DNA from: an uncultured Candidatus Saccharibacteria bacterium
GTDB lineage: Bacteria > Patescibacteriota > Minisyncoccia > Phycocordibacterales > UBA918
DNA: 64,000 bases
Assembly (NCBI GenBank): GCA_964399295.1
Contig: CAYNQD010000001.1
Span: 527,672 to 591,671 of the forward strand
Direction of reading: 5' to 3'
Part shown: piece after piece, positions 5,022 through 59,760 of the stretch
How the letters are laid out: each line of letters begins with the position of its first letter
How positions within the stretch are numbered: position 1 is the stretch's first letter
Notes under the pieces: generated by a model
What the model saw: the letters and a program-made list of their open reading frames with translations, nothing else
What the model was told of the DNA's origin: nothing
Databases searched by the model: none
Position numbers and translations under genes: made by a program

Positions 5022-6074
5022 ATGGCACTACGAAAGCAAAGAATACCTAAATACAAAGGTCATATAATGACTAGTATTGATGCTGCTAAATTGGGAATTG
5101 AAATGTTTAACAGAGTTGAAGGTGTTCACTCAAGACAAGCGGCTTTAATTTTCAATGCTCAAGCTTGGGAATTGTTTGCGAAAGGAGTACTTACTAAAAA
5201 GAAGATAAATATATACAAAGCTGATGGGACCTCACTTAGTGGTGAAGTGGCGGTTCATAAACTTTATAGCAGACTTCATATTTTGAATGAAGTTGAGAGT
5301 CAGACCATTCAACAAGTTTTTTCGCTCAGAAATGAAGCCATGCACCACGTCTTGTCAGATGTGCCTGATGAAATACTGACACATTTAATGTATTTTTCAC
5401 TAAAGATTTACCATAAACTATTAAAGGAACAATTTCCATCGTATTTTAAAGAATTTGATAAGAATTATTTGTCTATTGCTTTCAAGGAAAACACTTTCTA
5501 CTCTCATAGAATCAAAAAACTCTATTCATCCTCTAAAAAAACTAATACCCAGAATAATCATCTTTTATATTTACTTGACCGTGCATGTAAATATGGTGCT
5601 GAATCAGACGAAAACAAGAAAATACTTTCTTATAAAGAGTGGCAAAAAAGAATAAAAGCTAAACCAAAGAAATCAAGAATCTCGAAGCATCTCTCAGTTT
5701 ATGACTATACTCAAAAACAGGATGATGTGCGTTTTGTTCCAGTAGAAACTCCCAAAGGGCATGGGGTAAATATTGATATAAGGAAAGCAAAGAAACAATC
5801 AGAAGCTTTAAGTGTTTTTATTAAAAAAAGTAATCCAGATAATGATTACCCGTTTCTAACTTCAGACATGGCTAGTCATTTGGGCAAGACTGATTATTTT
5901 GTAAGAAAACTAGCAGAAAAACTAAAGTTTGAGGGAAACACTGAATATAAGACTGTTATCAAGACAGGTAAAAAGAGCACAACTAAAAAGTTTTCAAACA
6001 AGGCTTTGGAAAGGATGCGTAGCTGGATTAAAGATAACCCACACTGGAGTCCTTATAAAACAAAGAGTACATAA
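5022..6074 (+). CDS. Hypothetical protein with an Rx4H (HEPN-like) motif and a Lys-rich C-terminal half
   Basis: 350 aa. The motif SLRNEAMHH fits the HEPN Rx4-6H pattern. The C-terminal half is basic and Lys-rich, consistent with nucleic-acid binding. The start may instead be M16 (at 5067). Confidence 0.4.
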   Translation: MALRKQRIPKYKGHIMTSIDAAKLGIEMFNRVEGVHSRQAALIFNAQAWELFAKGVLTKKKINIYKADGTSLSGEVAVHKLYSRLHILNEVESQTIQQVFSLRNEAMHHVLSDVPDEILTHLMYFSLKIYHKLLKEQFPSYFKEFDKNYLSIAFKENTFYSHRIKKLYSSSKKTNTQNNHLLYLLDRACKYGAESDENKKILSYKEWQKRIKAKPKKSRISKHLSVYDYTQKQDDVRFVPVETPKGHGVNIDIRKAKKQSEALSVFIKKSNPDNDYPFLTSDMASHLGKTDYFVRKLAEKLKFEGNTEYKTVIKTGKKSTTKKFSNKALERMRSWIKDNPHWSPYKTKST

Positions 6075-6166: not shown

Positions 6167-9100
6167 TTGTGCTATAAATACTGTATGTACTCAGTAAATG
6201 ACTACCTTTCTGAGATAGCCAAGTACTTTGAAGATGAGAACAGTTCTGAGCACTCGTATCGGACATCATTTCAAAATTACTTAGCTACTATATTCCCCGA
6301 ATCAGAGGGCTATTTTATTCAGCAGGATCAGCGAGCAATAAACGGCAACAAACCAGACTATATTGTCCTCAAGAACAAAGTTCCACTTTTATATATTGAA
6401 GTTAAGAAGGTTGGAGAAGATTTAAATAAAATTGAAAACTCTAATCAAGCCGATCGTTATTTCGGATACACAAACTTAATCATTAGTGATTACGTTGAGT
6501 TTCGTTTTTTCAGGAATGGTCAGCGGTACGACGACTCGATATCACTTGGTGATGTTCATGCTAAAACTCGCACTATCTCCCCTAAGGCAGAGAATGCGGA
6601 GCGTCTTGTGCGTACAACTAAAGACTTCACTAATAGTCAGAAAGAGCCAATCAAGAGTGGTAGGCACTTAGCAAAAATTATGGGAGGTAAGGCTCAGCGC
6701 ATCAGAGATAACGTTATTGCTTTTCTTGAAACTGAAAGTACTGATAAAGATGAGCTAATTCGGATGCGAAGGTTTATTAAGGAGCATTTGATTGAAAACT
6801 TCTCTGATGCAGATTTTGCTGATATGTACGCCCAAACTTTGGTGTATGGACTTTTTGCAGCTCGATACAATGATGATACTCTCGAGAGCTTTAGTCGTCA
6901 GGAGGCACGAGAGTTGGTACCTGCTACCAATCCATTCTTAAAGAGTTTCTTTGATCACATCTCGGGCACTTCTTTCCCTCGCCGTTTAGAACTTATCGTT
7001 AATGAACTTTGTGAGGTATTTACCCATGCAGACGTTAAGGCATTGATGGAGGACTACTTCAAAACAACCGATTTATTTGGTACAGACCATGAGAGTCCAG
7101 ACCCTGTGATCCACTTTTATGAAGACTTCCTTCGAGAATACGACCCTTCTAAAAAGATGGAAATGGGTGTTTTTTACACACCGCTTCCTGTAGTTAGATT
7201 TATTATTCGAGGTATAGACGAGCTTCTTAAGAAGGAGTTTGGTATTGCTAAAGGTTTGGCAGACAACGAAAAGATATCTGTAACAAAAACTCATGTAGAT
7301 GATCGAGGAAAAAATATTAAAGACACTCGAGAGATTCATCGTGTACAAATGCTCGATGTGGCAGTAGGTACTGGTACGTTCCTTAATGAAACGGTGAATC
7401 ATATTCACGAGTCACAGAAATCTAACCAAGGTCGTTGGAATGCGTATGTAGAAGACGATTTATTACCTCGTCTACATGGTTTTGAACTTATGATGGCAAG
7501 TTACACTATTGCTCATCTCAAGCTTGCAATGACCCTCAAGAAGAGTGGCGTGGAAAAGTTTGGAAAACGATTAGGCGTATATCTTAGTAACACGCTCGAT
7601 GATGCTCATAACATACCGTTAACTAGCTCATTATTTGGTGTTGTAGATAGTATTGCTCAGGAAAGCCGACTTGCTTCGGAAGTAAAAAATGACACACCTA
7701 TAATGGTAGTGATGGGTAATCCTCCGTATTCAGTAGTGTCACAGAACCTTCATTATACTGATAATCAAGTTTACAAAGTAGAACCAGGCGGCTTGAAAAA
7801 GCTAAAAGAAGATAAAAATTTCCTTGATGATGATTATGTTAAGTTCATCCGTTTTGCTGAAAGTATGGTTGAGAAAAATGGCGAAGGTATAATTGGGATG
7901 ATTACAAATCATGGCTATATTGATAACCTCTCTTTTAGAGGAATGCGTTGGCATTTAAGGAATACTTTCGATGTGATTTATGTACTGGATCTTCATGGAA
8001 ATAGCACGAAGAAAGAAACTGCACCTGATGGCTCAGAGGATAAAAACGTATTCGACATTAAAACAGGTGTATCAATTATTTTTGGAGTTAAGAAGAAATC
8101 TGAACAAAAAAATAAAGAACTTGCAACTGTGTACACTGCTGACATATATGGGAAGAGGGCTGAAAAATTTGCTGAATTAAGTAGTGCGAATATCGAAGGA
8201 ATTAAATGGAATAAACTACCTGAAGTTTCTGACGTTTGGAGAGTTGAAGGAGAAGGTAAAAGCGATTATATGAAAGGCTTTTCTCTGGCAGATTTATTCC
8301 CAAAAAATACAACCGGTGTCTTTACTCTAGGTGACGGTTTTATCGTTGCTGACAACAAAGATGAACTTGAAAAAAGAATTGAAGTTTTACTCAATGAAGA
8401 TGTGTCAGAGTCACAATTGACCGAGAAATATTCACTTGGAAAAAATTATGCTAGATGGGTCATTGAAAATAAAAAAGCGGGGAAAATAATTGACTTCAGA
8501 AGTACTTTAACTTCACTGAATTACAGACCATTTGATAAACGCTACACCACCCTGACGACTAGTTTGGTTTGGCGTCCGCGTATCTCCGTGATGAAGCATT
8601 TATTGCAATCTGGGAATACGGCGTTGTTATTTAGTAGACAGGGTGGAGCTGCAAATCCCACATCATTTGACACTATTTTTATTTCAGACTCTGCAGTTGA
8701 TCTTAATTTCTTTAGAAGAGGCGGTGAGGTTGTGTGTCCTCTCTACTTGTATGAAGGTGATGACAGAGTTGCTAATCTGGATGATGAGATTGTTAATAAT
8801 ATTGAAAAGATATCGCACAAGACTAATCCAGAGGATATTGTAGATTACATTTACGCGTATCTGCACTCACCTACCTATCGCACAAAGTACAAAGAATTTT
8901 TGAATGGTGACTTTCCTCGAGTTCCTTATCCGAAAAATAAAGATTATTTTTGGAAAATTGTAGAGTCAGGTCGTCACCTAAGAGAACTGCACCTACTTAC
9001 TCATTCTTCAATACAAAATCAAATCACCTCTTTTCCAGAAACTGGAACAGATACGGTAGATAAGCCAGTATTTAAAAATAACCGTGTATATATAAATGAT

Positions 9101-9292
9101 GTTCAGTATTGGGACGGTATACCGAAGGAGGTGTGGGAATTCTATATCGGGGGTTACCAACCATTGCAGAAATATCTAAAAGACCGTAAAGGCAAAAAAC
9201 TAAGCTCAGCAGAGTTTGAGAATTATGAAAAAATGATTGTCTCATTAAATGAAACAATCATGGTTATGAAGGAAATAGATAAAATTATTTAA
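6167..9292 (+). CDS. Type IIG/IIL restriction-modification enzyme (N-terminal PD-ExK nuclease, gamma-class N6-adenine methyltransferase, C-terminal target-recognition region), MmeI/PglX-like
   Basis: 1041 aa. The N-terminus has KPDYIVL...LYIEVKK (PD...E-x-K). The methyltransferase motif IV is VVMGNPPYS, and a motif-I-like LDVAVGTGTF is upstream. The start may be the second Met at 6185. Confidence 0.75.
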   Translation: MCYKYCMYSVNDYLSEIAKYFEDENSSEHSYRTSFQNYLATIFPESEGYFIQQDQRAINGNKPDYIVLKNKVPLLYIEVKKVGEDLNKIENSNQADRYFGYTNLIISDYVEFRFFRNGQRYDDSISLGDVHAKTRTISPKAENAERLVRTTKDFTNSQKEPIKSGRHLAKIMGGKAQRIRDNVIAFLETESTDKDELIRMRRFIKEHLIENFSDADFADMYAQTLVYGLFAARYNDDTLESFSRQEARELVPATNPFLKSFFDHISGTSFPRRLELIVNELCEVFTHADVKALMEDYFKTTDLFGTDHESPDPVIHFYEDFLREYDPSKKMEMGVFYTPLPVVRFIIRGIDELLKKEFGIAKGLADNEKISVTKTHVDDRGKNIKDTREIHRVQMLDVAVGTGTFLNETVNHIHESQKSNQGRWNAYVEDDLLPRLHGFELMMASYTIAHLKLAMTLKKSGVEKFGKRLGVYLSNTLDDAHNIPLTSSLFGVVDSIAQESRLASEVKNDTPIMVVMGNPPYSVVSQNLHYTDNQVYKVEPGGLKKLKEDKNFLDDDYVKFIRFAESMVEKNGEGIIGMITNHGYIDNLSFRGMRWHLRNTFDVIYVLDLHGNSTKKETAPDGSEDKNVFDIKTGVSIIFGVKKKSEQKNKELATVYTADIYGKRAEKFAELSSANIEGIKWNKLPEVSDVWRVEGEGKSDYMKGFSLADLFPKNTTGVFTLGDGFIVADNKDELEKRIEVLLNEDVSESQLTEKYSLGKNYARWVIENKKAGKIIDFRSTLTSLNYRPFDKRYTTLTTSLVWRPRISVMKHLLQSGNTALLFSRQGGAANPTSFDTIFISDSAVDLNFFRRGGEVVCPLYLYEGDDRVANLDDEIVNNIEKISHKTNPEDIVDYIYAYLHSPTYRTKYKEFLNGDFPRVPYPKNKDYFWKIVESGRHLRELHLLTHSSIQNQITSFPETGTDTVDKPVFKNNRVYINDVQYWDGIPKEVWEFYIGGYQPLQKYLKDRKGKKLSSAEFENYEKMIVSLNETIMVMKEIDKII

Positions 9293-11166: not shown

Positions 11167-12258
11167 ATGGGAAATAGAGAATTTGAAGAAGCGATAGCAA
11201 ACATCTCAAGTTCTTTTTCTCTGAGTAAAGAAAAAATAGGTGCTCTAAGTGTGAATTGGAAGTTGCTACCAAAAGAGTTGGTTGTAATTGCCGGTAAATT
11301 TGATCGTGGTGAACCAATCTCCGATGCAGAAATTCTTGAGTATAAAAAGGTTTGGAGATCAGACGATCCTCTCATTGATGAAAATGGGAAGCCTTTTGTG
11401 TTTTATATTCATGACTTTGCTAACTCACACTGGGGTAAGCCAAATCGAGTATTTCATGTAGCTTGGTGCACTACGCTTGAGCGGATGGATAATAACGGGC
11501 GTAAAGCAAGGTATGTAAAGAAAGGAGATCTAGATAATAATGATTTTACTGTTGACTATGGTGAAGGGAAAAAAGGTATCGAACACCTACCTGCCTGTAT
11601 AAATTGCCGAACTAAAATGCAGGGCATTGTCGCTCCATCCGATCTTTATTACGAGCGCGATGATATGGATATCAGGAAATTCTTTAATATGTACGGCAGA
11701 CAGGATCTGCTAGACGTAAGCAATCCAATGTACCCAGTTGATTACCCAGCGAACTGGAATCAAATTTCATTGTCTTTACGAGAAAGAGCTAACTGGACAT
11801 GTAGCTCGTGCGGTCTGGATTGTTCTACAAATAAAAATCTACTACACGTACATCACAAAGATGGTAGAAGAGGCGTGGTTCATGCTGGTAATTTAGAAGT
11901 TGTCTGTGTTGATTGTCATAGTAAAAAATTTGGACATTCACACATGCGTACTGGTGTTTCTTCATCTAAGAATAGAATCGTATTTACTCCTAAACAATCT
12001 ACAACTGAGACTGTAAAAGTTCCTGCTTTCACTAATGAAAATACAGTGACTAGAGTTTCAAGTTCTCAACAAAATAAACTAGATAGTTTTATAGCTAATC
12101 CAGATAGGTATGCAACTGGCTCAGAAAAGACAAAACTTAAAGTGAGAGAAGCTCAAGAAACATTTAATCTAATCAAAGAGAGTCTAAGTAAAGCAGAACA
12201 AAACAAGTTTTATGACGCTCTAAAAACTTATCAAAGAACTTTAAAAGACCGATTATGA
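11167..12258 (+). CDS. HNH endonuclease-domain protein (ZorE-like position)
   Basis: 363 aa. CSSCGLDCSTNKNLLHVHHKDGRRGVVHAGNLEVVCVDCHSK is an HNH motif with paired Cys and His-His. Its stop overlaps the next gene's start (ATGA). Confidence 0.7.
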   Translation: MGNREFEEAIANISSSFSLSKEKIGALSVNWKLLPKELVVIAGKFDRGEPISDAEILEYKKVWRSDDPLIDENGKPFVFYIHDFANSHWGKPNRVFHVAWCTTLERMDNNGRKARYVKKGDLDNNDFTVDYGEGKKGIEHLPACINCRTKMQGIVAPSDLYYERDDMDIRKFFNMYGRQDLLDVSNPMYPVDYPANWNQISLSLRERANWTCSSCGLDCSTNKNLLHVHHKDGRRGVVHAGNLEVVCVDCHSKKFGHSHMRTGVSSSKNRIVFTPKQSTTETVKVPAFTNENTVTRVSSSQQNKLDSFIANPDRYATGSEKTKLKVREAQETFNLIKESLSKAEQNKFYDALKTYQRTLKDRL

Positions 12259-13779: not shown

Positions 13780-14442
13780 ATGGAATTTTCTACATCAAAC
13801 ATCATCAAAGGAATACTCTCAGGCATGTGGGAGATGAAAGAGCTATATTTCACGATGATTGGTGTAGCACTGCTCGCACTCGCACTTCGAGTGATGATTG
13901 ACCTCATGAGTCGGCGAAGTAAGATCAAATGGTTTTTAGGAAAGAAGCAAGTGCAAGATCTTCAGAAACTTACCCCTACACAATTTGAAGAATATATCGC
14001 AGTACTTTTTAAATCTCTTGGCTATGAAACTAGAGTTACGGGTGGCAAGGGTGACGGTGGTGTAGATGTTCAAGCTGAAAAAGACGGTCATGTTCACTAC
14101 ATCCAGTGTAAGAAATTCATCACCTCAAAAGTGCCAGTCAGTGCGGTACGTGATTTTTATGGAGCCATTGCAGATCGAGTAGATGGAGGAAAAGGGTATT
14201 TTATTACCACCAACGTTTTCACTCTTGATGCTGAGAAGTTTGCTGAGGATAAACCAATTGAACTCATCGACAAGTTTAAGTTAATGGAGTACATGCAGAT
14301 GGTGGATGCTGATATTCCTGAAGTAAAAGCGTCAGTTTGTCCAAAATGTGGAAGTGAGCTAGTGAGACGTCGAGGCAAGTATGGTGCTTTTCTAGGCTGT
14401 AGCACATATCCAGATTGTGACTATACAGAGAAACTTACCTAA
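13780..14442 (+). CDS. Mrr-family restriction endonuclease with a C-terminal topoisomerase-type C4 zinc ribbon and an N-terminal TM segment
   Basis: FEEYIAVLFKSLGYETRVTGGKGDGGVDVQAEKDGHVHYIQCKKF matches the Mrr_cat core (GxxDxGxD...QxK). The C-terminus is CPKCGSELVRRRGKYGAFLGCSTYPDCDY. The ORF track start at 13726 overlaps the previous gene, so the Met at 13780 is used here. Confidence 0.65.
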   Translation: MEFSTSNIIKGILSGMWEMKELYFTMIGVALLALALRVMIDLMSRRSKIKWFLGKKQVQDLQKLTPTQFEEYIAVLFKSLGYETRVTGGKGDGGVDVQAEKDGHVHYIQCKKFITSKVPVSAVRDFYGAIADRVDGGKGYFITTNVFTLDAEKFAEDKPIELIDKFKLMEYMQMVDADIPEVKASVCPKCGSELVRRRGKYGAFLGCSTYPDCDYTEKLT

Positions 14443-37398: not shown

Positions 37399-37794
37399 GG
37401 GGATGCTAGGCATCGACGGTGAGTCGTGCTTTTTGTGTGCAGTGTGAGAGCTGCTCGAGACTCTCCAAAAACTCGAGTACTTTGTATGTGCAAAGAAAAG
37501 CATACCAAGTCCTTACGCTAACGCGTTTGGATTCGCTCCCGCTTTTGCGTAATCTTTTACGCAGGCCGTAGCGATGCTCTGCTTTCCGAGGTCTCATAAG
37601 GAAGTTGGAGTAGAATAGCCATGAGGCTTTGGCGACGAGGGCTGTTTCCCCTCGTTGCCGAGATTCTTGAAACTCGATTACTTTGCGTTTGGTCTCCCTT
37701 CTAGCTTAGTAATTTAAACCCAAAGCGAGACTACACACTGTAGATTCACAAAGACACCCTCATTCGGACGCGGGTTCAATTCTCGCCATCTCCA
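37399..37794 (+). ncRNA. ssrA: tmRNA (ssrA)
   Basis: The 5' end GGGGATGCTAGGCATCGACGG matches the conserved tmRNA start (GGGGnTG...TTCGACGG). The 3' tRNA-like domain is GGACGCGGGTTCAATTCTCGCCATCTCC-A, and its acceptor strand CATCTCC pairs with the 5' GGGGATG. A tag-like reading frame GCA AAG AAA AGC ATA CCA AGT CCT TAC GCT AAC GCG TTT GGA TTC GCT CCC GCT TTT GCG TAA encodes AKKSIPSPYANAFGFAPAFA*. It lies immediately downstream of smpB. Confidence 0.75.
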
Positions 37795-37896
37795 CAACAG
37801 TAACCACCTAAGGCCCAAGCATTGCTTTGGGCCTTAGGTGTATGGCTTTGAGCGGGTTCTAATATTTTTAGATCTCGGCAGAGATCCCGAGACTAC

Positions 37897-48761: not shown

Positions 48762-48818
48762 GAAAAAAGAAAAAGAAAAGGCGGGCGCGAAGCGCCCGCC
48801 TTTTCTTTTTCTTTTTCT
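48762..48818. terminator. Bidirectional rho-independent terminator (downstream of ndk)
   Basis: The palindrome is GAAAAAGAAAAGGCGGGCGC-gaa-GCGCCCGCCTTTTCTTTTTC. The GC-rich stem is flanked by A-runs and T-runs on both sides. Confidence 0.7.
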
Positions 48819-48827
48819 TCCAAAAAC

Positions 48828-49433
48828 CTACTCCTGCGTCCCGTCCAAATTCACATCGTACATGATGCGTTCCTGTGCGGTCTTGTATTTCATGATTTCA
48901 TTCTCCTTAAACCAGATGGCGATTTCGCGCTCAGCCTCAGCTGGAGCATCAGAACAATGAATAAGATTTCGTACTGATCGATTTTCAAAAGAAGCGTGTC
49001 CGTATGAGTCGATAGTGTAATCTCCGCGAATAGTACCGACATCTGAGGTGGCTGGCTCCGTAGTACCCACAATCTTCATCACCACCTGCACTGCCTGATT
49101 ACCCTCCCAAACCATAGCCACCACCGGCCCAGCCGTCATGTATTTTACAATCATACGAATAATGTCACGACCATATTCAACCGGCTCCTTGTCAATCGGC
49201 AAACCCTGCGCCATCAAATCGCTCACGACATTAGTGCCTTTTTTTAAAAACCATTCTTCGGTTTTGTTGTAGTGCTGCACCAATCTTTCTTCATCCGGTG
49301 TAAACATTTTCATAGCCGTACACTTAAGGCCGGTTTGCTCAATGCGCTTTGTAACCTCCCCAACCAAACCTCTCTGCACGGTATCTGGCTTTAAGATAAT
49401 AAAAGTTCGTTCCTGATGTGGATATTTTTTCAT
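48828..49433 (-). CDS. ndk: Nucleoside diphosphate kinase
   Basis: ERTFIILKPDTVQRGLVGEV..., the catalytic-His context NLIHCSDA and RGDY. Confidence 0.85.
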   Translation of the reverse strand: MKKYPHQERTFIILKPDTVQRGLVGEVTKRIEQTGLKCTAMKMFTPDEERLVQHYNKTEEWFLKKGTNVVSDLMAQGLPIDKEPVEYGRDIIRMIVKYMTAGPVVAMVWEGNQAVQVVMKIVGTTEPATSDVGTIRGDYTIDSYGHASFENRSVRNLIHCSDAPAEAEREIAIWFKENEIMKYKTAQERIMYDVNLDGTQE

Positions 49434-49503: not shown

Positions 49504-50109
49504 CTACTCATCCCACTTCTTCTTGAAAGTTATTACCCGATAAAAATAAGTAGCAAAAATAAGTGCCACTATCGCGTTTGATATTGGGTCTAGGTAATTA
49601 CCAATTTTGTCATGCTGGCTCTGCAAAAAATAACCCGTCAAAGCCAGCAAGGTAGACCAGAGAAGACTACCGATAAAAGAATATAGCAAAAATGACCACA
49701 CCGGCATCTTGGCAATACCGGCCGGTACTGAAATGAGGGTGCGAATGGTAGGAATCATCCGCCCAAACAACACCGCCTTGCGGCCATAACGATGAAACCA
49801 CACCTCGGCCGCGTCGATATCTTCCGGTGTCAGGGTCAAAGCACGGCCATAACGCAACGACAACCGCTTCAACCTCTTAATCCCAAACATCCTCCCCAAA
49901 ATATACCAAGGCAAAACTCCCGCCACCGTACCCAAAGACACCACCAATATCACCAAAAAAATATTCATCTCTCCCGCCGCGGCCGCGTATCCAGCTAGAG
50001 GAATAATCACCTCCGACGGTATCGGCGGAAAAATATTTTCCAAAACCATCAAAAAGAAAATACCGGCGTATCCGCCAGTTTCAATAATGTGAAGCGTCCA
50101 ATCAAACAT
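49504..50109 (-). CDS. DedA/SNARE-associated family membrane protein
   Basis: Polytopic, with the DedA signature region FGRMIPTIRTLISVPAG. Confidence 0.75.
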   Translation of the reverse strand: MFDWTLHIIETGGYAGIFFLMVLENIFPPIPSEVIIPLAGYAAAAGEMNIFLVILVVSLGTVAGVLPWYILGRMFGIKRLKRLSLRYGRALTLTPEDIDAAEVWFHRYGRKAVLFGRMIPTIRTLISVPAGIAKMPVWSFLLYSFIGSLLWSTLLALTGYFLQSQHDKIGNYLDPISNAIVALIFATYFYRVITFKKKWDE

Positions 50110-50129
50110 AATGGCTACATTCTAGCAGA
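50074..50129. repeat. Direct repeat copy 1 (56 bp; covers the dedA start codon, 12 codons and about 20 bp upstream)
   Basis: GCCAGTTTCAATAATGTGAAGCGTCCAATCAAACATAATGGCTACATTCTAGCAGA is identical to 51006..51061. Confidence 0.9.
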
Positions 50130-50338
50130 TAGCGGACAAAAGACCTCATGGTTTGGGTTTGATAATTGGAAGCGCACATGGAGAAACTGACTAAAGAAAA
50201 AAGACTAACGCGACAAAAGACCGTATTTATAGCCTCTTCAAAAGAATTTATATGTCAGTTGGATCAATCATATGTACTTATTGTATCAATATATATAAAT
50301 ATTATCAATCATTTAGGTATTGAAACGACCTTGACTCC

Positions 50339-50374
50339 ATCTACAAAAATAGAAATTGAATATATTGATTAAAC
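50339..50374 (-). repeat. Solitary CRISPR-type repeat, a near-identical copy of the 53.2-kb array repeat (1 mismatch)
   Basis: ATCTACAAAAATAGAAATTGAATATATTGATTAAAC differs from the array repeat ATCTACAAAAGTAGAAATTGAATATATTGATTAAAC by one G-to-A change (a G-U wobble in the hairpin). No second repeat lies within 2.7 kb. Confidence 0.7.
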
Positions 50375-50471
50375 CTGTGTGCCATCATCTTTAACAAGTA
50401 CAATTTGTAGATGACCCCGATTGAGTGCAGTAAGATTTCCTGCAAGACGAAGCTCAGCCATTCTAATCTCC

Positions 50472-50954
50472 TTATAATCTTGTTTTTATTATTCTAAGAT
50501 CGTGAATAATAATTCGTTCAATCTCAGTATATAAAATTTCAATACTTACGCTATGTACAAGTATTTTTGATTCTAGGTTAAGAAGCCAGCCATGCGCAAA
50601 AATGATGCCTTGTTTTTCAGTATTCCAGTATGCTGCAACAGAAAACGCAGGATTATTTATACCGTATATTCTCGTTGAATTTTCGCTTAATAAAGCTGAC
50701 TTTACTTCTAAACCTTGTGCAATCAACCAGGCTTCAGCTTCTTCCCAGCTGTCAAAATTAGAAGAGAGAAAATCTTTAAGTTGAGCCTTTGCTTCTTCTT
50801 CTGAAATACTATTCGACCATGCGACAAAATCAAAATCAGCATCAGTAGATAGTGTTTCTTTCTTTTGCATAAGTTGTTCTGCTGCAGTAATAGTACCCAA
50901 AAGAATTACTAAAGTTGATATTGTTATTAGTGTGATTTTAAAAGCATTTTTCAT
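50472..50954 (-). CDS. Secreted hypothetical protein (paralog of 51997..52500)
   Basis: It has a signal peptide. The first 80 residues are about 80% identical to the N-terminus of the 52015 gene (TITAAEQLMQKKETLS..FDFVAWSNSISEEEAKAQLKDFLSS). The duplicated dedA promoter lies directly upstream. Confidence 0.5.
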   Translation of the reverse strand: MKNAFKITLITISTLVILLGTITAAEQLMQKKETLSTDADFDFVAWSNSISEEEAKAQLKDFLSSNFDSWEEAEAWLIAQGLEVKSALLSENSTRIYGINNPAFSVAAYWNTEKQGIIFAHGWLLNLESKILVHSVSIEILYTEIERIIIHDLRIIKTRL

Positions 50955-51005
50955 ATCTTAATTAACTGCTTTGCTGTCATCATTTAAAAGCCAAGACAGC
51001 TTTAT

Positions 51006-51061
51006 GCCAGTTTCAATAATGTGAAGCGTCCAATCAAACATAATGGCTACATTCTAGCAGA
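51006..51061. repeat. Direct repeat copy 2 (56 bp)
   Basis: Identical to 50074..50129. On the minus strand it fuses the first 12 dedA codons to a 27-aa ORF that ends immediately upstream of the 50954 gene. Confidence 0.9.
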
Positions 51062-51202
51062 ATGCCGGCAAAAACACGATTTGGTTGTGTGGTGGAGGTG
51101 GCAAAAGAAAGATTAAACATAGCTAGGCAAGTTTGGAGTACAAAGAAGAACGCCGAGATTAGAGCTGGATATTTTATTTCGTTTTATTGGAAAATAATAA
51201 AA

Positions 51203-51826
51203 TTAGAACTCTCCAAACCGTTGATCAAGATTTATCACATAGTCTCTGAGGCGCAAAGTTCTTTCAGACGCAAGAGTTAAAGAACATCGCGTACTTTCCG
51301 TATTTCCTATAACCCTGTTGTGCAGCCAATAGGTGCTTGTTAACGAACATTCGGCATCAAAATACTGTTCCCATAAATTTTGAGAGGATTTAAGCGGTTC
51401 TGATAATTCATCAATACCATAAAGCGTGTCTAGGTATTTTTTCATTAAATCAAACCAAGCCTCTACTTCATAATTACCACAATTAACTTCTGTACATTCA
51501 AAAGCATAGGTTCCCACGCACTTTTCTGAAGAAATTCCAGTTTTCTTTTGATCCAAACAAGATTCGATGATTGAGACCGCCTTAGCAATTTCTACCTCGT
51601 TACGATCTGATAAGGCAATTTTTTGTCCACGGGGCGTATCTTCCTGAAATGATTCAGAGATTTCTTGGTTTTGGTAGTATTGAGATAAAGTTTTTTCTTC
51701 TCTTGAAATGCCAGAGTCATTATCAACACTTAACTGTTTACCACTTTCAACTATTTCTAAAAAATAAAAAGTTAGTCCGAAACCAACCAACATAACTAGG
51801 GCAATGATTTTCATTGATTTATTCAT
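51203..51826 (-). CDS. Membrane-anchored or secreted Cys-containing hypothetical protein (possibly DUF1311/LprI-like)
   Basis: 207 aa with an N-terminal TM/signal helix. The C-terminus carries conserved Cys and Tyr (EQYFDAECSL...RCSLTLASERTLRLRDYV). Confidence 0.35.
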   Translation of the reverse strand: MNKSMKIIALVMLVGFGLTFYFLEIVESGKQLSVDNDSGISREEKTLSQYYQNQEISESFQEDTPRGQKIALSDRNEVEIAKAVSIIESCLDQKKTGISSEKCVGTYAFECTEVNCGNYEVEAWFDLMKKYLDTLYGIDELSEPLKSSQNLWEQYFDAECSLTSTYWLHNRVIGNTESTRCSLTLASERTLRLRDYVINLDQRFGEF

Positions 51827-52014: not shown

Positions 52015-52500
52015 ATGAAAAGTGTTTTAAAAAGTACGCTTATAACAATATCGGCCCTAGTCATTCTTTTGGCCACCATTACTGTAGCAGAACAACTTAT
52101 GCAAAAGAAGGAAACGCTCTCTGTTGAGGCTAATTTTGATTTTGTTGCTTGGTCAAATAGTATTTCAGAAGAAGAAGCAAAAGCTCAGCTTAAGGATTTC
52201 CTATCTTCTTTTAATAATTGGGAAGAGGTTGAAAGCTGGCTGGGTGCACAGGGTTTCCGGGTAGAGAAACCTTTATTAACTCCTGAGAATACAGCAGAAA
52301 TTTACGGTATTGATAATAAACCTATATTATTTACTGCGGTAGCAGGCTGGTCTCCAAAAAGGCAAGGCATTATTTTTGCAAATAATTTGATTATTAAAAT
52401 TGAATCAAAGTTGTTTGTATATGGTGTAAATATTGGATTTTTATATTCTGAGGATCCTTTCTTAATTCAGCGAATTAATATAACAAAAACACGACAATAA
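52015..52500 (+). CDS. Secreted hypothetical protein (paralog of 50472..50954)
   Basis: See the paralog entry. It is the first gene of a three-gene plus-strand cassette that ends in the CRISPR mini-array. Confidence 0.5.
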   Translation: MKSVLKSTLITISALVILLATITVAEQLMQKKETLSVEANFDFVAWSNSISEEEAKAQLKDFLSSFNNWEEVESWLGAQGFRVEKPLLTPENTAEIYGIDNKPILFTAVAGWSPKRQGIIFANNLIIKIESKLFVYGVNIGFLYSEDPFLIQRINITKTRQ

Positions 52501-52505
52501 GGAGA

Positions 52506-52802
52506 GTGGGTATGGCAGAACTTCGTTTGGCATCTAGTTACGCCAGCATAGACACGTTCCAAGCTTGGTTAGAGTTTCAGGGTTTTGAAGTCACTGCTCG
52601 TTTTGAACACCAGAATGCAGATCCCATGGGGGCATGGATTGGTCTCAGTGGTAGCCGTAATCATGCTGAGAATAATGGTCGCTTGTTTAGCGTAAGCGTG
52701 TTTCAGAAATTTTTAGGTCAGGATCATAGTATGTCGGTTTTTGCGCAGTTCGATCATACCGATAACGTAATCGGCATACAAACTGCATTTAACACTAAAT
52801 AG
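52506..52802 (+). CDS. Small hypothetical protein
   Basis: 98 aa (MGMAELRLASSY...). Its N-terminus is echoed in the 30-aa remnant on the minus strand at 50368..50460. Confidence 0.45.
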   Translation: MGMAELRLASSYASIDTFQAWLEFQGFEVTARFEHQNADPMGAWIGLSGSRNHAENNGRLFSVSVFQKFLGQDHSMSVFAQFDHTDNVIGIQTAFNTK

Positions 52803-52813
52803 GGGGAAATGAA

Positions 52814-53164
52814 GTGGCGACAGTAAATTTGGCAGGTAATTTGATTACTGGAATTAGTGTACTGGGTGTTGGTCACCTACAGCTCGTTCGGATTGATGGA
52901 ACAAATCAATTGGAAATTGAAGTTCAGGCGCCCACTGATTTTGGGATGTTTGGAGGTGAATGGGTATATCATCAAAGGGATCATACAGATCCCAATCACA
53001 CGAGCGCATTCATACCTAATGCCAACGGCGTGTCCCCCAATCCAAACGAATATGCGATTACAGAAATAGACGTTGGGAATCGTAATCCAGACGAAGTATG
53101 GCAAGTATTAACTAGGATATATGATGAATTTCGTTTGAAAGGAGACTTTGAATATATTGATTAA
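52814..53164 (+). CDS. Small hypothetical protein whose last 6 codons lie inside the terminal CRISPR repeat
   Basis: 116 aa (MATVNLAGNLITG...GHLQLVRIDGTNQ...). The C-terminus ...GDFEYID* is encoded by TTTGAATATATTGATTAA, which is the 3' 18 nt of the repeat. Its homologous N-terminus is found in the 50.4-kb remnant. Confidence 0.45.
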   Translation: MATVNLAGNLITGISVLGVGHLQLVRIDGTNQLEIEVQAPTDFGMFGGEWVYHQRDHTDPNHTSAFIPNANGVSPNPNEYAITEIDVGNRNPDEVWQVLTRIYDEFRLKGDFEYID

Positions 53165-53352
53165 ACCTCCTTGCGGATAAGCAGGTGCTCGTATCTACAA
53201 AAGTAGAAATTGAATATATTGATTAAACACACGCGTCAACGAATCTTTGGCGGTATCTACAAAAGTAGAAATTGAATATATTGATTAAACTCAACACTAA
53301 AGGACGAATACGCCTGATCTACAAAAGTAGAAATTGAATATATTGCAGCCAA
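53148..53352 (-). CRISPR. Orphan CRISPR mini-array: 3 spacers (26 nt each) and 36-nt repeats of Cas12a/type V-A-like sequence
   Basis: Identical 36-nt repeats at 53193-53228 and 53255-53290 (ATCTACAAAAGTAGAAATTGAATATATTGATTAAAC on the plus strand). A third copy at 53317-53352 matches for 29 nt and then diverges. A truncated 19-nt copy lies at 53148-53166. Unique spacers sit at 53167-53192 (CTCCTTGCGGATAAGCAGGTGCTCGT), 53229-53254 (ACACGCGTCAACGAATCTTTGGCGGT) and 53291-53316 (TCAACACTAAAGGACGAATACGCCTG). The minus-strand repeat is GTTTAATCAATATATTCAATTTCTACTTTTGTAGAT, which ends in the Cas12a crRNA handle AAUUUCUACU-UUU-GUAGAU. Confidence 0.7.
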
Positions 53353-53446
53353 TTTCCAAATAAGATTTATACACAATAATGGTACTATGTGGTTCTTGTG
53401 GTGTTAATAATTTTTTATAATAGAGAAGACACAAAAAACGAAACTT

Positions 53447-54379
53447 ATGATAAAAAATAATACACATGTCGTACTGGGAGCTTCGGGTGCTATTGGCCAA
53501 GGAGTAGTCAAGGCCTTGCAGGAAAAAGGTCTGGTGATAAGAGCTGTTGAGAGATCAAAACAAGTTGCGGGCATAGAGACGGTTTTGGCTGATCTCAGCG
53601 ATGAAAAGCAAGCGCGGGAGGCGATAGTGGGCGCGAGCCATGTTTATCTTTGCGTCGGCCTACCGTACAACACTAAAATTTGGCAAAGCGGATGGCCGCG
53701 GCTTATGCGCTCCGTCATCAATGCCTGTGCAGAGGCAAACGCCAAGTTGATTTTCTTTGATAATGTATATATGTACGGACCTTCTCTGTCGGTGCCATTT
53801 ACTGAAAATCACCCACAAAACCCAACAACAAAGAAAGGGATGGTGAGGAAACAGGTAGCGGATTTGTTACTGCAAGCGCACAATTCCAGCCAGGTGCAAG
53901 CGGTTATCGGGCGGTCGGCTGATTTTTACGGCCCTAAAGCCGTCAACAGCCAGCTTTACATAAAATTTATCGAACGCATCAAACAAGGGAAAAATCCACA
54001 ATGGCTCGGCCAGCCAGACCAGCCACACACCTACTCCTACACACTAGACAATGGGCGAGCGCTAGTAGAGCTGGCGCTTGACGACACCGCTTACGGACAA
54101 GTCTGGCATTTGCCAGTTGGTAAGCCCATTGCGATTGGAGAAATCCTTGGCCTCATCAATAAGAAGCTCGGGACTTCATACAAAGTTTCTTATTTACCCC
54201 GACCTTTACTCGGTCTAATGTCACTCTTTATTCCACCAATTAAAGAGGTCAAAGAAATGCTGTATCAATTTGACAATCCATACATCATGTCTGACCAAAA
54301 ATTTCGAGATCGCTTTCCGGATTTTAAAACGACCAGCTATGAGGAGGGTTTGGCTGCCATGATTGAGAGTTTTGAGTAA
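53447..54379 (+). CDS. NAD-dependent epimerase/dehydratase-family (SDR) protein
   Basis: The N-terminal Rossmann motif is VLGASGAIGQGVVKAL. It is 310 aa. Confidence 0.7.
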   Translation: MIKNNTHVVLGASGAIGQGVVKALQEKGLVIRAVERSKQVAGIETVLADLSDEKQAREAIVGASHVYLCVGLPYNTKIWQSGWPRLMRSVINACAEANAKLIFFDNVYMYGPSLSVPFTENHPQNPTTKKGMVRKQVADLLLQAHNSSQVQAVIGRSADFYGPKAVNSQLYIKFIERIKQGKNPQWLGQPDQPHTYSYTLDNGRALVELALDDTAYGQVWHLPVGKPIAIGEILGLINKKLGTSYKVSYLPRPLLGLMSLFIPPIKEVKEMLYQFDNPYIMSDQKFRDRFPDFKTTSYEEGLAAMIESFE

Positions 54380-57304: not shown

Positions 57305-57363
57305 GGAGGGAGAAAATTAAAGAGGCGTGCCCAAAGGGCACGCCTCTTTAATTTTCTCCCTCC
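57305..57363. repeat. Perfect 28-bp-stem inverted repeat (hairpin) between secY and gmk
   Basis: GGAGGGAGAAAATTAAAGAGGCGTGCCC-aaa-GGGCACGCCTCTTTAATTTTCTCCCTCC has arms that are exactly reverse-complementary. No U-run follows on the secY transcript strand. Confidence 0.85.
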
Positions 57364-57371
57364 TTTACCTT

Positions 57372-58643
57372 CTAATACTCCCGCATCGACACCTGCGCGT
57401 CCAAACGACGAATCAAGTCTAGTACCACCTGTACCACGATCAAGACCGCTGTTCCGCCCATGGCTAAAGCCGCGATACCGGTAACCGCCTGCATACCAAT
57501 CGGAATCACCGCCACTATACCCAAGAAAGTAGCGCCAACCAGAGTAAGTCTGGTAATCAAACCACCTAAATATTCAGAAGTCTGTGTTCCCGGACGAATA
57601 CCCGGAATATACGAACCATTACGCTGCAGATTTTTGGCGACGGAATCCGGATCGAAAGTAATTGCTGTATAAAAGAAAGTAAACAGAAATACCAAGACAA
57701 AATACACTCCTCCGTATACCCATTGATTCGCCAGAATGGCGGTCACGGTTTCGTTTGCTCCAGCTACCCAAGGCAGATTGAAAGCCGATAGAATATTCAA
57801 CACCATCTGTGGCAACAATAGAATCGACAGCGCAAAGATGATCGGAATTACACCAGCCTGATTGATGCGCAGCGGCAGGTATGAAGAGCTGCCACCGTAA
57901 GTCATTCCGCCTCGACTTTGCTTGGCTGAGGTTATTGGCACCGGACGTTCAGCTTCAGTCATCAGCACCACCGCGTAAATAATGAGCAAGGCCACAATCA
58001 CAAATCCAACATAAAGCGGGAGTTGTGATGGGTCAAATGAAAACGCCAATTGACTCACGGTTGAAGGTAGCGTTGCCACGATACCGGCAAAGATGATGAT
58101 TGACACACCGTTTCCAATACCATATTCAGTTATGAGTTCACCAATCCACATCAAAAGCACCGAACCAGCTACAATCAAAACGACGTTAACAGCAAAGTCA
58201 AAAGTGGATAGCCCTACAATCACGCCTTGGCTTTGCAAAAGAGTCAAAAAACCAAACCCTTGCAAAATCGCCAAAGGCAAAGTCAAAAGCCGACTGTATT
58301 GAGTAAATTTAGCCCTTCCAGCCTCACCTTCTTCAGTGTACAAGCTCTTGACCTTCGGTGACATCACCGTCATAAGCTGCATGATAATGGAAGCGGTAAT
58401 GAAAGGCCCAACACCCAACATCACGATTGAGAGATTGGCCAAGCCGCCTCCGGAAAAGATATTCAAGAGACCGAGAAATTGATTGTCTGAGAAGAACTGT
58501 TGTAGCACAGCCTGATCAACTCCAGGAATTGGAATTGAAGCCAAGAGTCTAAAAACTACCAAAGCCCCCAAGATAATCAAAACTCGATTACGGATGGACG
58601 GTTCGGTAAAAATTAGAGTGAGCTTACGAAAAAATGTTTGCAT
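57372..58643 (-). CDS. secY: Preprotein translocase subunit SecY
   Basis: 423 aa with 10 TM helices and a conserved SecY N-terminus and plug region. Confidence 0.9.
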   Translation of the reverse strand: MQTFFRKLTLIFTEPSIRNRVLIILGALVVFRLLASIPIPGVDQAVLQQFFSDNQFLGLLNIFSGGGLANLSIVMLGVGPFITASIIMQLMTVMSPKVKSLYTEEGEAGRAKFTQYSRLLTLPLAILQGFGFLTLLQSQGVIVGLSTFDFAVNVVLIVAGSVLLMWIGELITEYGIGNGVSIIIFAGIVATLPSTVSQLAFSFDPSQLPLYVGFVIVALLIIYAVVLMTEAERPVPITSAKQSRGGMTYGGSSSYLPLRINQAGVIPIIFALSILLLPQMVLNILSAFNLPWVAGANETVTAILANQWVYGGVYFVLVFLFTFFYTAITFDPDSVAKNLQRNGSYIPGIRPGTQTSEYLGGLITRLTLVGATFLGIVAVIPIGMQAVTGIAALAMGGTAVLIVVQVVLDLIRRLDAQVSMREY

Positions 58644-58655
58644 ACCCTATATTAC

Positions 58656-59108
58656 CTATTTTGTAACAACTCCACCAGCTTTTTCAAGCTTTTCCTGGGC
58701 CGACTTTGATACCTGACAATTCTCAATCGTTAATTTCTTGGTTATTTCTCCATTTCCTAAAACCTTCACACTTGGAGCCTTTTTGCCCACGGCAGAAATT
58801 ACTTTTTTGGCTACCAAAGTCTTTGGTGAAACCACCTCTCCGGCTGAGAAGATGGTTTCGAGTTTGGACAGATTTACCACTACCACTACCTCTTTCTCGC
58901 TATTTACGGTACGAGCGCGATTCTTTCCGTGTCCGCGCAATTTAGGAAGTTTCTTAATCTGATCGCGCATTTCCGGACGCATACTGTTTCCAGCTCTGGC
59001 AGTCTGTCCTTTACCGCCACGACCTGAGGTCTTGCCTCGTTTTCCGCCGCGACCAATGCGCTTGGTTTCTTTGCGCGGTGAAGTTGGTTTTAATTCATGT
59101 AGCTGCAT
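58656..59108 (-). CDS. rplO: 50S ribosomal protein L15
   Basis: The Gly/Arg-rich N-terminus RIGRGGKRGKTSGRGGKGQ is typical of L15. Confidence 0.85.
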   Translation of the reverse strand: MQLHELKPTSPRKETKRIGRGGKRGKTSGRGGKGQTARAGNSMRPEMRDQIKKLPKLRGHGKNRARTVNSEKEVVVVVNLSKLETIFSAGEVVSPKTLVAKKVISAVGKKAPSVKVLGNGEITKKLTIENCQVSKSAQEKLEKAGGVVTK

Positions 59109-59109
59109 A

Positions 59110-59760
59110 CTAATTTTTTCTTAGAAGTTTAAGTGCTTCGACAGCGGCACGGGCGTTGTTAAGCTTGTTCTTGCTGCGTGAAAATATCTTCGCGGTTACG
59201 TCTTTTACACCAGCGTGTTCTAGCACGGTACGGACTGAAGACCCCGCCACGAGTCCCCGACCAGGAGCCGGCATAATCATGACTTCACTGGAAGCATATT
59301 TGGTATGAACATCGTGAGGAATATGACTGTCTTTGTTTATAGTGACAATAATCATATTCTTCTTAGCGTCACGCACAGCCTTTTCAATGGCCATTTGCGT
59401 GTCGCCAGCCTTACCGATACCAACTCCCACTCGACCTTTCTTGTCACCAATAACTATCGCCACCGAAAAACTGAAACGACGACCTCCAGCCATCACGCGA
59501 GTCACGCGACGAATGCTGATAATTTTTTGATCAAATTCCGGACGAACCCGCTCTGGGCGGCCACCGCGTCGTGGTCGTCGTTGATTTCTTCGATCTCCTC
59601 CCCCCTGACCTCTGCGACTATGCCCGCCGCGTTCACTGGAAACGGCTTCAGTTTTTGTCTCTGATTCTGGCACAGCTGGTGCATCGGTTGAAGCCACTAT
59701 GGCTTCAGTTTCTGATGTTACGTCATCAGTTGTAGCTTCCGGCTGTTTTGTTTCTGACAT
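59110..59760 (-). CDS. rpsE: 30S ribosomal protein S5, with an acidic/Arg-rich N-terminal extension
   Basis: RRVTRVMAGGRRFSFSVAIVIGDKKGRVGVGIGKAGD...VMIMPAPGRGLVAG matches S5. Its stop is 1 bp from the rplO start, so no L30 gene lies between them. Confidence 0.85.
   Translation of the reverse strand: MSETKQPEATTDDVTSETEAIVASTDAPAVPESETKTEAVSSERGGHSRRGQGGGDRRNQRRPRRGGRPERVRPEFDQKIISIRRVTRVMAGGRRFSFSVAIVIGDKKGRVGVGIGKAGDTQMAIEKAVRDAKKNMIIVTINKDSHIPHDVHTKYASSEVMIMPAPGRGLVAGSSVRTVLEHAGVKDVTAKIFSRSKNKLNNARAAVEALKLLRKN

Follow-up and report, generated by a model that had tools for sequence, protein, structure and literature searches.

The window, by which we mean the whole 64-kb stretch of DNA that was analyzed, contains a low-GC island at 50.1–53.4 kb (GC 0.34–0.39 versus ~0.45) that lies between a dedA/VTT-family gene (49504–50109, minus strand) and an epimerase gene (53447–54379). 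Two copies of a gene cassette, a three-spacer CRISPR mini-array adjoining one of them, and a solitary Cas12a-type repeat within the other are located in this island, and their coordinates are collected in Table 1. The genes in the neighborhood of the solitary repeat are housekeeping genes and ORFans, some of the proteins having hydrophobic N termini. No match to the island was found in phage and plasmid collections. The Rfam matches in the window are limited to one tmRNA and two tRNAs, the tmRNA gene (RF00023, 90.5 bits) being at 37399–37797. Two perfect hairpins with 3-nt loops are also present in the window, one at 57305–57363 near the start of secY (57372–58643) and the other at 48764–48816, downstream of a 201-aa gene (48828–49433); their arms are 28 nt and 25 nt long, respectively.

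Table 1. Positions of the solitary repeat, the cassette genes, the mini-array, and the direct repeats in the window
Feature	Position	Strand	Remarks
Left direct-repeat copy	50074–50141	.	56 nt perfect, 68 nt at 94%; dedA/VTT codons 1–12 plus 20–32 nt upstream
AT-rich stretch between left direct repeat and pseudo-spacer	50142–50312	.	No homology found
Pseudo-spacer, GGAGTCAAGGTCGTTTCAATACCTAA	50313–50338	-	26 nt by analogy with the array; no repeat after it, no target found
Solitary full-length type V-A (Cas12a) CRISPR repeat	50339–50374	-	35/36 identity to array repeat
ORF30, 30-aa ORF	50369–50461	-	N-terminal stub of a g3 paralogue (g3'); good Shine-Dalgarno
g1', 160 aa	50472–50954	-	Intact paralogue of g1; N-terminal hydrophobic segment (by eye)
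Right direct-repeat copy	51006–51073	.	Non-functional duplicate of dedA 5' end
207-aa protein	51203–51826	-	Hydrophobic N terminus (by eye), weak LprI-like match; between the cassette copies, in the low-GC island
g1, 161 aa	52015–52500	+	Sole relative in word-indexed search is g1'
g2, 96 aa	52512–52802	+	No family match; no counterpart in the solitary-repeat unit
g3, 116 aa	52814–53164	+	Predicted stand-alone copy of the N-terminal domain of large RTX proteins
Degenerate terminal (trailer-end) repeat	53131–53166	-	First 19 nt exact, 3' half decayed
Mini-array	53167–53345	-	Spacers 53291–53316, 53229–53254, and 53167–53192, each 26 nt
Two full array repeats	53255–53290 and 53193–53228	-	In the three-spacer array, 2.8 kb from the solitary repeat
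Leader-proximal array repeat	53317–53345	-	First 7 nt of crRNA-sense repeat missing

The solitary repeat reads ATCTACAAAAATAGAAATTGAATATATTGATTAAAC on the plus strand and, in the crRNA sense on the minus strand, GTTTAATCAATATATTCAATTTCTAtTTTTGTAGAT (36 nt). Its 3' end is the handle AAUUUCUAUUUUUGUAGAU (50357–50339, minus strand), which has the textbook type V-A form, AAUUUCUA(C>U)UUUUGUAGAU. The copy has the features by which type V-A repeats are recognized, namely a length of ~36 nt, a handle of the pattern AAUUUCUAC-N4-GUAGAU, and a 5-bp stem, the loop-closing pair being G-U in this copy. It differs at a single position from the two full array repeats and from the 5'-truncated, leader-proximal one. 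When the 19-nt handle pattern was searched for with three or fewer mismatches, exactly four sites were found in the 64 kb, as compared with 0.03 expected by chance. The C-to-U change in the solitary repeat affects the loop-closing pair, converting G-C to G-U with retention of the 5-bp stem, and the predicted hairpin persists but is weaker than that of the array repeat (−2.8 versus −4.8 kcal/mol). Retention of the stem carries little weight because, as we count them, the stem stays pairable after 83 of the 108 single substitutions that could occur (~77%). When the repeat is folded in its native 121-nt context, the minimum-energy structure pairs its 5' part with AT-rich sequence downstream and does not contain the handle hairpin, a weak effect (z = −0.36); the first array repeat retains the handle hairpin in its native-context fold, and the z-scores are near zero. 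No second repeat follows the solitary copy in the 197 nt downstream, where the best ungapped match is 20/36, a score that is reached by 20% of shuffled sequences. A degenerate second repeat downstream and an inverted copy at 50285–50305 were both considered and rejected, the similarity in each case being at the level of chance. The initial annotation had described the element as a genuine solitary Cas12a-type repeat, with a mismatch that preserves the stem as a G-U pair and with no second repeat after it, and each of these points is upheld, by the 35/36 identity to the repeats of a related array 2.8 kb away, by the predicted hairpin, and by the chance-level match downstream. The pseudo-spacer that it had proposed is present as well, but starts with GGAGTC; the AT that had been prefixed to it forms the last two nucleotides of the repeat.

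The neighboring array has a leader-proximal repeat that is short by 7 nt and a terminal repeat in which the 3' half is degenerate, and a canonical leader is absent, the 100 nt upstream of the array having no similarity to the leader of the cognate loci described below. Because of these three features, the array at 53131–53345 looks, from its sequence, like a leaderless trailer-end stump. Repeats without cas genes, truncated or degenerate repeats at the ends, and a missing leader are the attributes of remnant or orphan arrays, and all of them are found here.

The main cassette, g1-g2-g3 (52015–53164, plus strand), enters the array from the trailer side, and the degenerate terminal repeat, read in antisense, encodes the last ~12 codons of g3 and its stop codon. 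The cassette occurs a second time in inverted orientation, and the solitary repeat is in this copy, downstream of g1'. Nucleotide homology between the two copies extends from 52006 to ~52531 in the first and from 50965 to ~50442 in the second; beyond this, the protein sequence of ORF30 matches the N terminus of g3 (local search, E = 3e-5). The stop codon of ORF30 is formed by nucleotides 4–6 of the solitary repeat, the 29-codon g3' stub being joined directly to the repeat. The products of g1 and g1' have 60% identity, with pS 0.46, dS 0.71, and dN/dS 0.33, and g1' is a diverged paralogue under purifying selection and not debris. No Pfam family was matched by g1, g1', or g2, and in the word-indexed search neither g1 nor g1' had a relative other than its paralogue. 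A full HMMER scan with g3 and P0002, a distant homologue, gave 174 relatives at E ≤ 0.001. Many of these are proteins of 800–3664 aa with a ~125-aa domain, itself without a Pfam match, that starts at residue 1, and RTX/HemolysinCabind calcium-binding repeats are present in 6/6 of the large relatives that were checked. Because many large relatives carry the domain at residue 1 and those checked have RTX repeats, g3 is assigned by homology to the N-terminal domain of RTX-type proteins, present here on its own and possibly truncated. The sole distant stand-alone homologue of g3 (P0002/P0003, 47% identity) starts with MSEIRLAGNL, and P0002 extends ~35 residues beyond the point where g3 meets the degenerate terminal repeat. 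No functional tie between the cassette and CRISPR was seen.

These comparisons modify the earlier description of the region, in which the solitary repeat was embedded in a degraded duplicate of the cassette together with a 30-aa minus-strand ORF that fuses the N termini of g2 and g3. A second copy of the cassette is indeed present, in inverted orientation and with g3' reduced to a stub, but g1' is intact and under purifying selection. The ORF also exists on the minus strand, with its coordinates corrected to those in Table 1. A g2/g3 fusion is not required to explain it: the sequence MAELRLAGNL of ORF30 may be the native N terminus of the family, because the stand-alone homologue of g3 begins with MSEIRLAGNL. 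Loss of g2 by deletion between two TTGGCA microhomologies is a possible, and equal, alternative for the origin of the ORF.

The second cassette copy and the solitary repeat are contained in an 876-bp unit (50130–51005) that is bracketed by the two dedA direct-repeat copies. These copies are identical at 56/56 positions and then at 8/12, with no detectable homology past 68 nt. The insert leaves a truncated extra dedA start and displaces the native upstream region of dedA; at 56 nt, the direct repeat exceeds the size of an ordinary target-site duplication. None of the sequences compared (g2, g3, the native upstream region of dedA, and the loci retrieved) matches the 197 nt that separate the left direct repeat from the solitary repeat; the AT-rich part of this segment contains a minus-strand promoter-like site (50308–50280) that points towards dedA. 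Three further proposals concerning the unit and the island were examined and rejected. (i) An origin of the 197 nt as the inverted C-terminal half of g3' was discarded when tblastn and Smith-Waterman comparisons against shuffled sequences revealed no homology to g2 or g3. (ii) A relationship of the same 197 nt to the native dedA upstream region was discarded, nothing being shared outside the 68-nt repeat. (iii) The island might have carried the dedA direct repeat a third time, at its right end (53346–53446), which would have implied tandem site-specific integrations, but the alignment score there equals that of shuffles.

Look-ups of exact proteins, made for sister genomes with or without the insert, gave only short contigs from one sample series, which end at the repeats. 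Two such short-read contigs, L008 (corresponding to 50100–51035) and L007 (51006–53220), end exactly at the 56-nt repeat, and this raises the question of whether the tandem structure is the sole or true one; the 876-bp unit plus one direct repeat might be a 932-bp circle or a strain variant that was placed in tandem by the assembler. A de Bruijn graph containing the 56-nt repeat fits an insert-free chromosome plus a circle equally well, and L007 passes through the repeat into the native upstream region with no branch on that side. However, both junctions between the unit and the repeat are found at 100% identity in independent samples, L008 itself occurring in five samples, and the 56-nt repeat is shorter than typical reads so that the 594-kb assembly could resolve it. 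We consider a circle or variant to be very unlikely and, even if it were the true structure, the solitary repeat and its junction with the g3' stub would stay real.

No cas gene or remnant of one was identified in the 64-kb window by tblastn with Cas12a, Cas4, and Cas1, and nothing related to CRISPR was identified there apart from the repeats and spacers described above. The longest ORF in the window (6167–9292) encodes 1041 aa, as compared with 1316–1324 aa for the cognate Cas12a. This ORF has an NPPY methyltransferase motif and reads like a type IIG fused restriction-methylase; it is the sole obvious defense gene within the window. Complete systems with the same repeat are found elsewhere. 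The exact 36-mer is present in five JGI metagenome contigs (L002–L006), at 1–26 copies each with spacers of 25–27 nt, and all of the repeats read in these contigs (49/49) are identical. Beside the arrays are genes for a protein of 1316–1324 aa and for proteins of 178 aa and 322 aa; the large protein is Cas12a, as indicated by its Pfam REC1, Cpf1_PI-like, and RuvC_1 domains, and cas12a, cas4, cas1, and cas2 accompany the 36-mer in these loci (Pfam REC1, RuvC_1, Cas_Cas1, and CRISPR_Cas2). The order in the cognate Kaiserbacteria locus is cas12a, ParE/ParD on the opposite strand, cas4, cas1, cas2, leader, and array, and the leader carries, in our own reading of the sequence, a TTGACA/TATAAA promoter. 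The cognate Cas12a is in a 90% identity cluster that is named Candidatus Kaiserbacteria bacterium CG_4_8_14_3 (GCA_002782375.1). Among 5.8 billion proteins, and within the best 120 of 467 relatives listed, no other Cas12a is closer than 56% identity. The toxin-antitoxin pair, ParE/ParD, that is located between cas12a and cas4 of the Kaiserbacteria V-A locus is at 14020–14569 in contig L021 and at 5260–5809 in contig L022. In the window, the gene for ribosomal protein S5 directly adjoins that for L15 with no L30 gene between them (58656–59760), an arrangement that is a hallmark of the CPR/Patescibacteria and that fits the Kaiserbacteria origin of the cognate system; the chromosome accordingly looks like that of a CPR/Patescibacteria bacterium.

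The source contig is apparently without a cognate Cas12a, as judged indirectly among the best 120 of the 467 Cas12a relatives listed: the cassette proteins are on record on a contig of 594,086 bp, a length shared by none of the contigs of these 120, and the longest contig in the cognate cluster has 17,635 bp. A scan of GTDB representatives for this protein returned nothing. Counterparts of the genes that flank the cognate loci (LepA, MurJ, and glutaredoxin) were not found in the window, and the 1.15 kb past the array in L006 has no similarity to it; the other cognate contigs terminate inside the array. CRISPR-Cas systems are reported to be rare in CPR bacteria (PMC6509639).

Cas12a is not known to require a downstream repeat for a usable guide, the 5' handle being enough. 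The solitary repeat followed by GGAGTCAAGG... might on this basis be a single-guide unit, or an RNA of the CreR or crlRNA type, for a Cas12a encoded elsewhere in the genome, with a target that is matched in full or in part. Stand-alone repeats are a common feature of V-A loci (PMC10120712), and RNAs of the CreR type are reported for such systems (10.1101/2023.03.10.532045). As in CreA/CreR and crlRNA mini-arrays, a spacer-like sequence comes after a repeat-like element that is not part of the main array. The known crRNA-like regulatory RNAs, however, are inside cas loci and have spacers that partly match the promoters of cas or toxin genes (PMC10120712), whereas the solitary repeat is neither within nor beside a cas locus and its pseudo-spacer has no match to a cas or toxin promoter above chance. 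More generally, no PAM-flanked target of the pseudo-spacer (GGAGTCAAGGTCG...) above chance was identified in the window, in L002–L006, or in the phage contig L001 that is described below. For the first 16 nt, the best TTTV-flanked match in the window is 12/16, and at least 12 matches were reached by 16/100 shuffles; the best such match in the cas loci of L002–L006 is 10/16, and the phage contig gave none better. IMG/VR contains no exact 20-nt match to the pseudo-spacer, and upstream of cas12a in the cognate loci there is nothing repeat-like to which the solitary repeat could correspond. A role as guide or regulator is, in our judgment, unlikely. The spacers of the mini-array were compared in the same way. 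Neither the pseudo-spacer nor the three spacers have a self-target in the window, and the spacers of the cognate arrays do not target it. Spacers 1 and 3 have no match in IMG/VR, and spacer 2 (53229–53254) matches two related IMG/VR contigs at 21–22 of 26 nt (L014, 1940–1960; L015, 9220–9240). The sequence on the PAM side of these viral matches is ...CCA and not TTTV, and, by a rough estimate, an exact match of 20 nt is near chance for a database of this size; they could be due to chance or represent an escaped or old target.

The initial annotation had offered an array remnant as one of its options, and this is the option that the evidence favors, cas genes being absent and a leaderless trailer stump lying close by. 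The solitary repeat is probably a remnant of a lost CRISPR-Cas locus, left by rearrangement of an array, the cognate cas genes no longer being nearby; because they are not, the repeat is most likely a relic and not a working RNA. The route of duplication followed by deletion that had been suggested for it is disfavored by two observations. First, the orientation differs: the repeats beside the main cassette run antisense to g3 and converge with it, and that of the solitary-repeat unit has the same direction (sense) as the g3' stub, which calls for an inversion or an independent illegitimate junction. Second, the repeat is far better conserved than its flanks, with differences at 46% of synonymous sites between g1 and g1', at 1/36 positions in the repeat, and at 0/56 in the flanking direct repeats. 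The 876-bp segment, with g1', the g3' stub, the repeat, and the 197 nt, would have arrived recently because the flanking duplications are still identical. Its source was probably a diverged form of the island, where a working Cas12a system preserved the repeat; this would explain the 97% identity of the repeat beside an adjacent gene with dS 0.71. In the present genome the repeat is most likely inert. Read-through from g1'-ORF30 would be the route of any transcription of it, there being no terminator-like site between these genes and the repeat. Such a read-through RNA would retain a handle that Cas12a could bind and process, and it could be loaded by a cognate Cas12a provided in trans.

Some of the same observations can be turned against a remnant. 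An identity of 35/36 beside DNA with pS 0.46 could instead mean that the repeat is under selection where it is, and gene conversion from the nearby array is an alternative source that could account for the identity. The position of the repeat directly after a translatable ORF, in an apparent operon, is also similar to that in acr-racr operons (PMC10651486). The repeat might be selected in a cas-less host, either as a chromosomal decoy against the Cas12a of foreign elements or, together with the array stump, as a homologous landing pad for recapture of CRISPR-cas. The basis of this proposal is the conservation of the repeat beside a gene with dS 0.71 and its location at the 3' end of the g1'-ORF30 transcript, and recapture of a locus in this way has been the subject of speculation for Francisella. 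We assign selection of either kind a low probability.

A repeat left by rearrangement also has to be distinguished from an RNA anti-CRISPR (Racr), a function that the initial annotation had suggested. According to this proposal, a handle RNA co-transcribed with g1'-ORF30 would titrate the Cas12a of an incoming element or of a co-resident replicon. Racrs are solitary repeats on viruses and plasmids, often just downstream of a promoter and often beside acr genes, and their hosts carry the matching CRISPR system (PMC10651486). Like the known Racrs, among them RacrVA1–3 (Camara-Wilpert et al. 2023, PMC10651486), the window copy is a single handle-mimicking repeat, and it comes immediately after an ORF, the order seen in acr-racr operons. 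Its handle is full-length and structurally intact, and the repeat is much better conserved than its flanks. It is truly solitary, no repeat being found at the spacing of an array, though the related array is 2.8 kb away. A solitary copy of the same 25-nt handle region is intergenic in a phage contig (L001, IMGVR_UViG_3300037067_013626; 11671–11695, minus strand). This copy, ATATTCAATTTCTACTTTTGTAGAT, matches the 3'-terminal 25 nt of the window repeat exactly and has no second repeat after it; because it is carried by a phage contig, handle mimics do exist for this repeat family. The contig encodes a DNA polymerase, a terminase-like protein, and the QueD/QueE/GTP-cyclohydrolase genes of DNA modification.

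Unlike the Racrs, however, the window copy is chromosomal, with housekeeping neighbors, no recognizable mobile element, no similarity to phages or plasmids, and no acr-like genes beside it, and the N terminus of g1' is apparently hydrophobic (by eye). No minus-strand promoter-like site was found by a consensus scan of the interval between ORF and repeat (50375–50505), and promoter-like sites in the region as a whole are not above chance. In the native-context fold described above the handle hairpin is lost, although the effect is weak. The host contig gave no sign of a cognate Cas system, and inhibition of a Cas12a that is absent from the host would bring no obvious gain. The suggestion is thus not sustained for this copy, which lacks phage or plasmid character, a promoter-like site directly upstream, and a cognate Cas12a in the window, and a functional Racr or decoy appears improbable; the phage copy is a far better candidate for a Racr against this family of Cas12a. 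A lone repeat that matches a known handle is insufficient evidence for an RNA anti-CRISPR. If it were true that the window repeat is expressed and bound by Cas12a, solitary-repeat RNA mimics would extend from phages to host chromosomes.

Interpretation of the solitary repeat as a remnant places the locus among known products of CRISPR-Cas decay. It is similar to orphan arrays in having a short, leaderless, cas-less array in a horizontally acquired low-GC island, but differs from them in the additional solitary repeat, which is joined to the same gene family at a junction of its own, with the opposite arrangement. The closest precedent, by analogy, appears to be the cas-less locus of Francisella hispaniensis, in which a solitary repeat and the last, divergent repeat are the remnant of a lost V-A locus (Shmakov et al., PMC10120712). 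Both are cas-less chromosomal sites with Cas12a-type repeats identical to those of complete loci elsewhere, and in both a degenerate terminal repeat and a stand-alone repeat have been kept. The window differs in that three spacers are retained and the solitary repeat is 2.8 kb away, inside a rearranged paralogous cassette that is flanked by a 56-nt duplication. It differs also in that the cognate loci have nothing repeat-like ahead of cas12a that the repeat could represent, and no synteny was found between the window and the cognate cas-positive loci. The window would thus be a case of the same kind as F. hispaniensis with an extra rearrangement. As read here, the solitary repeat is a further example of decay of a CRISPR-Cas system that leaves repeat debris, in this instance in a small-genome CPR bacterium, and it indicates that lone repeats can become fused to unrelated gene fragments.
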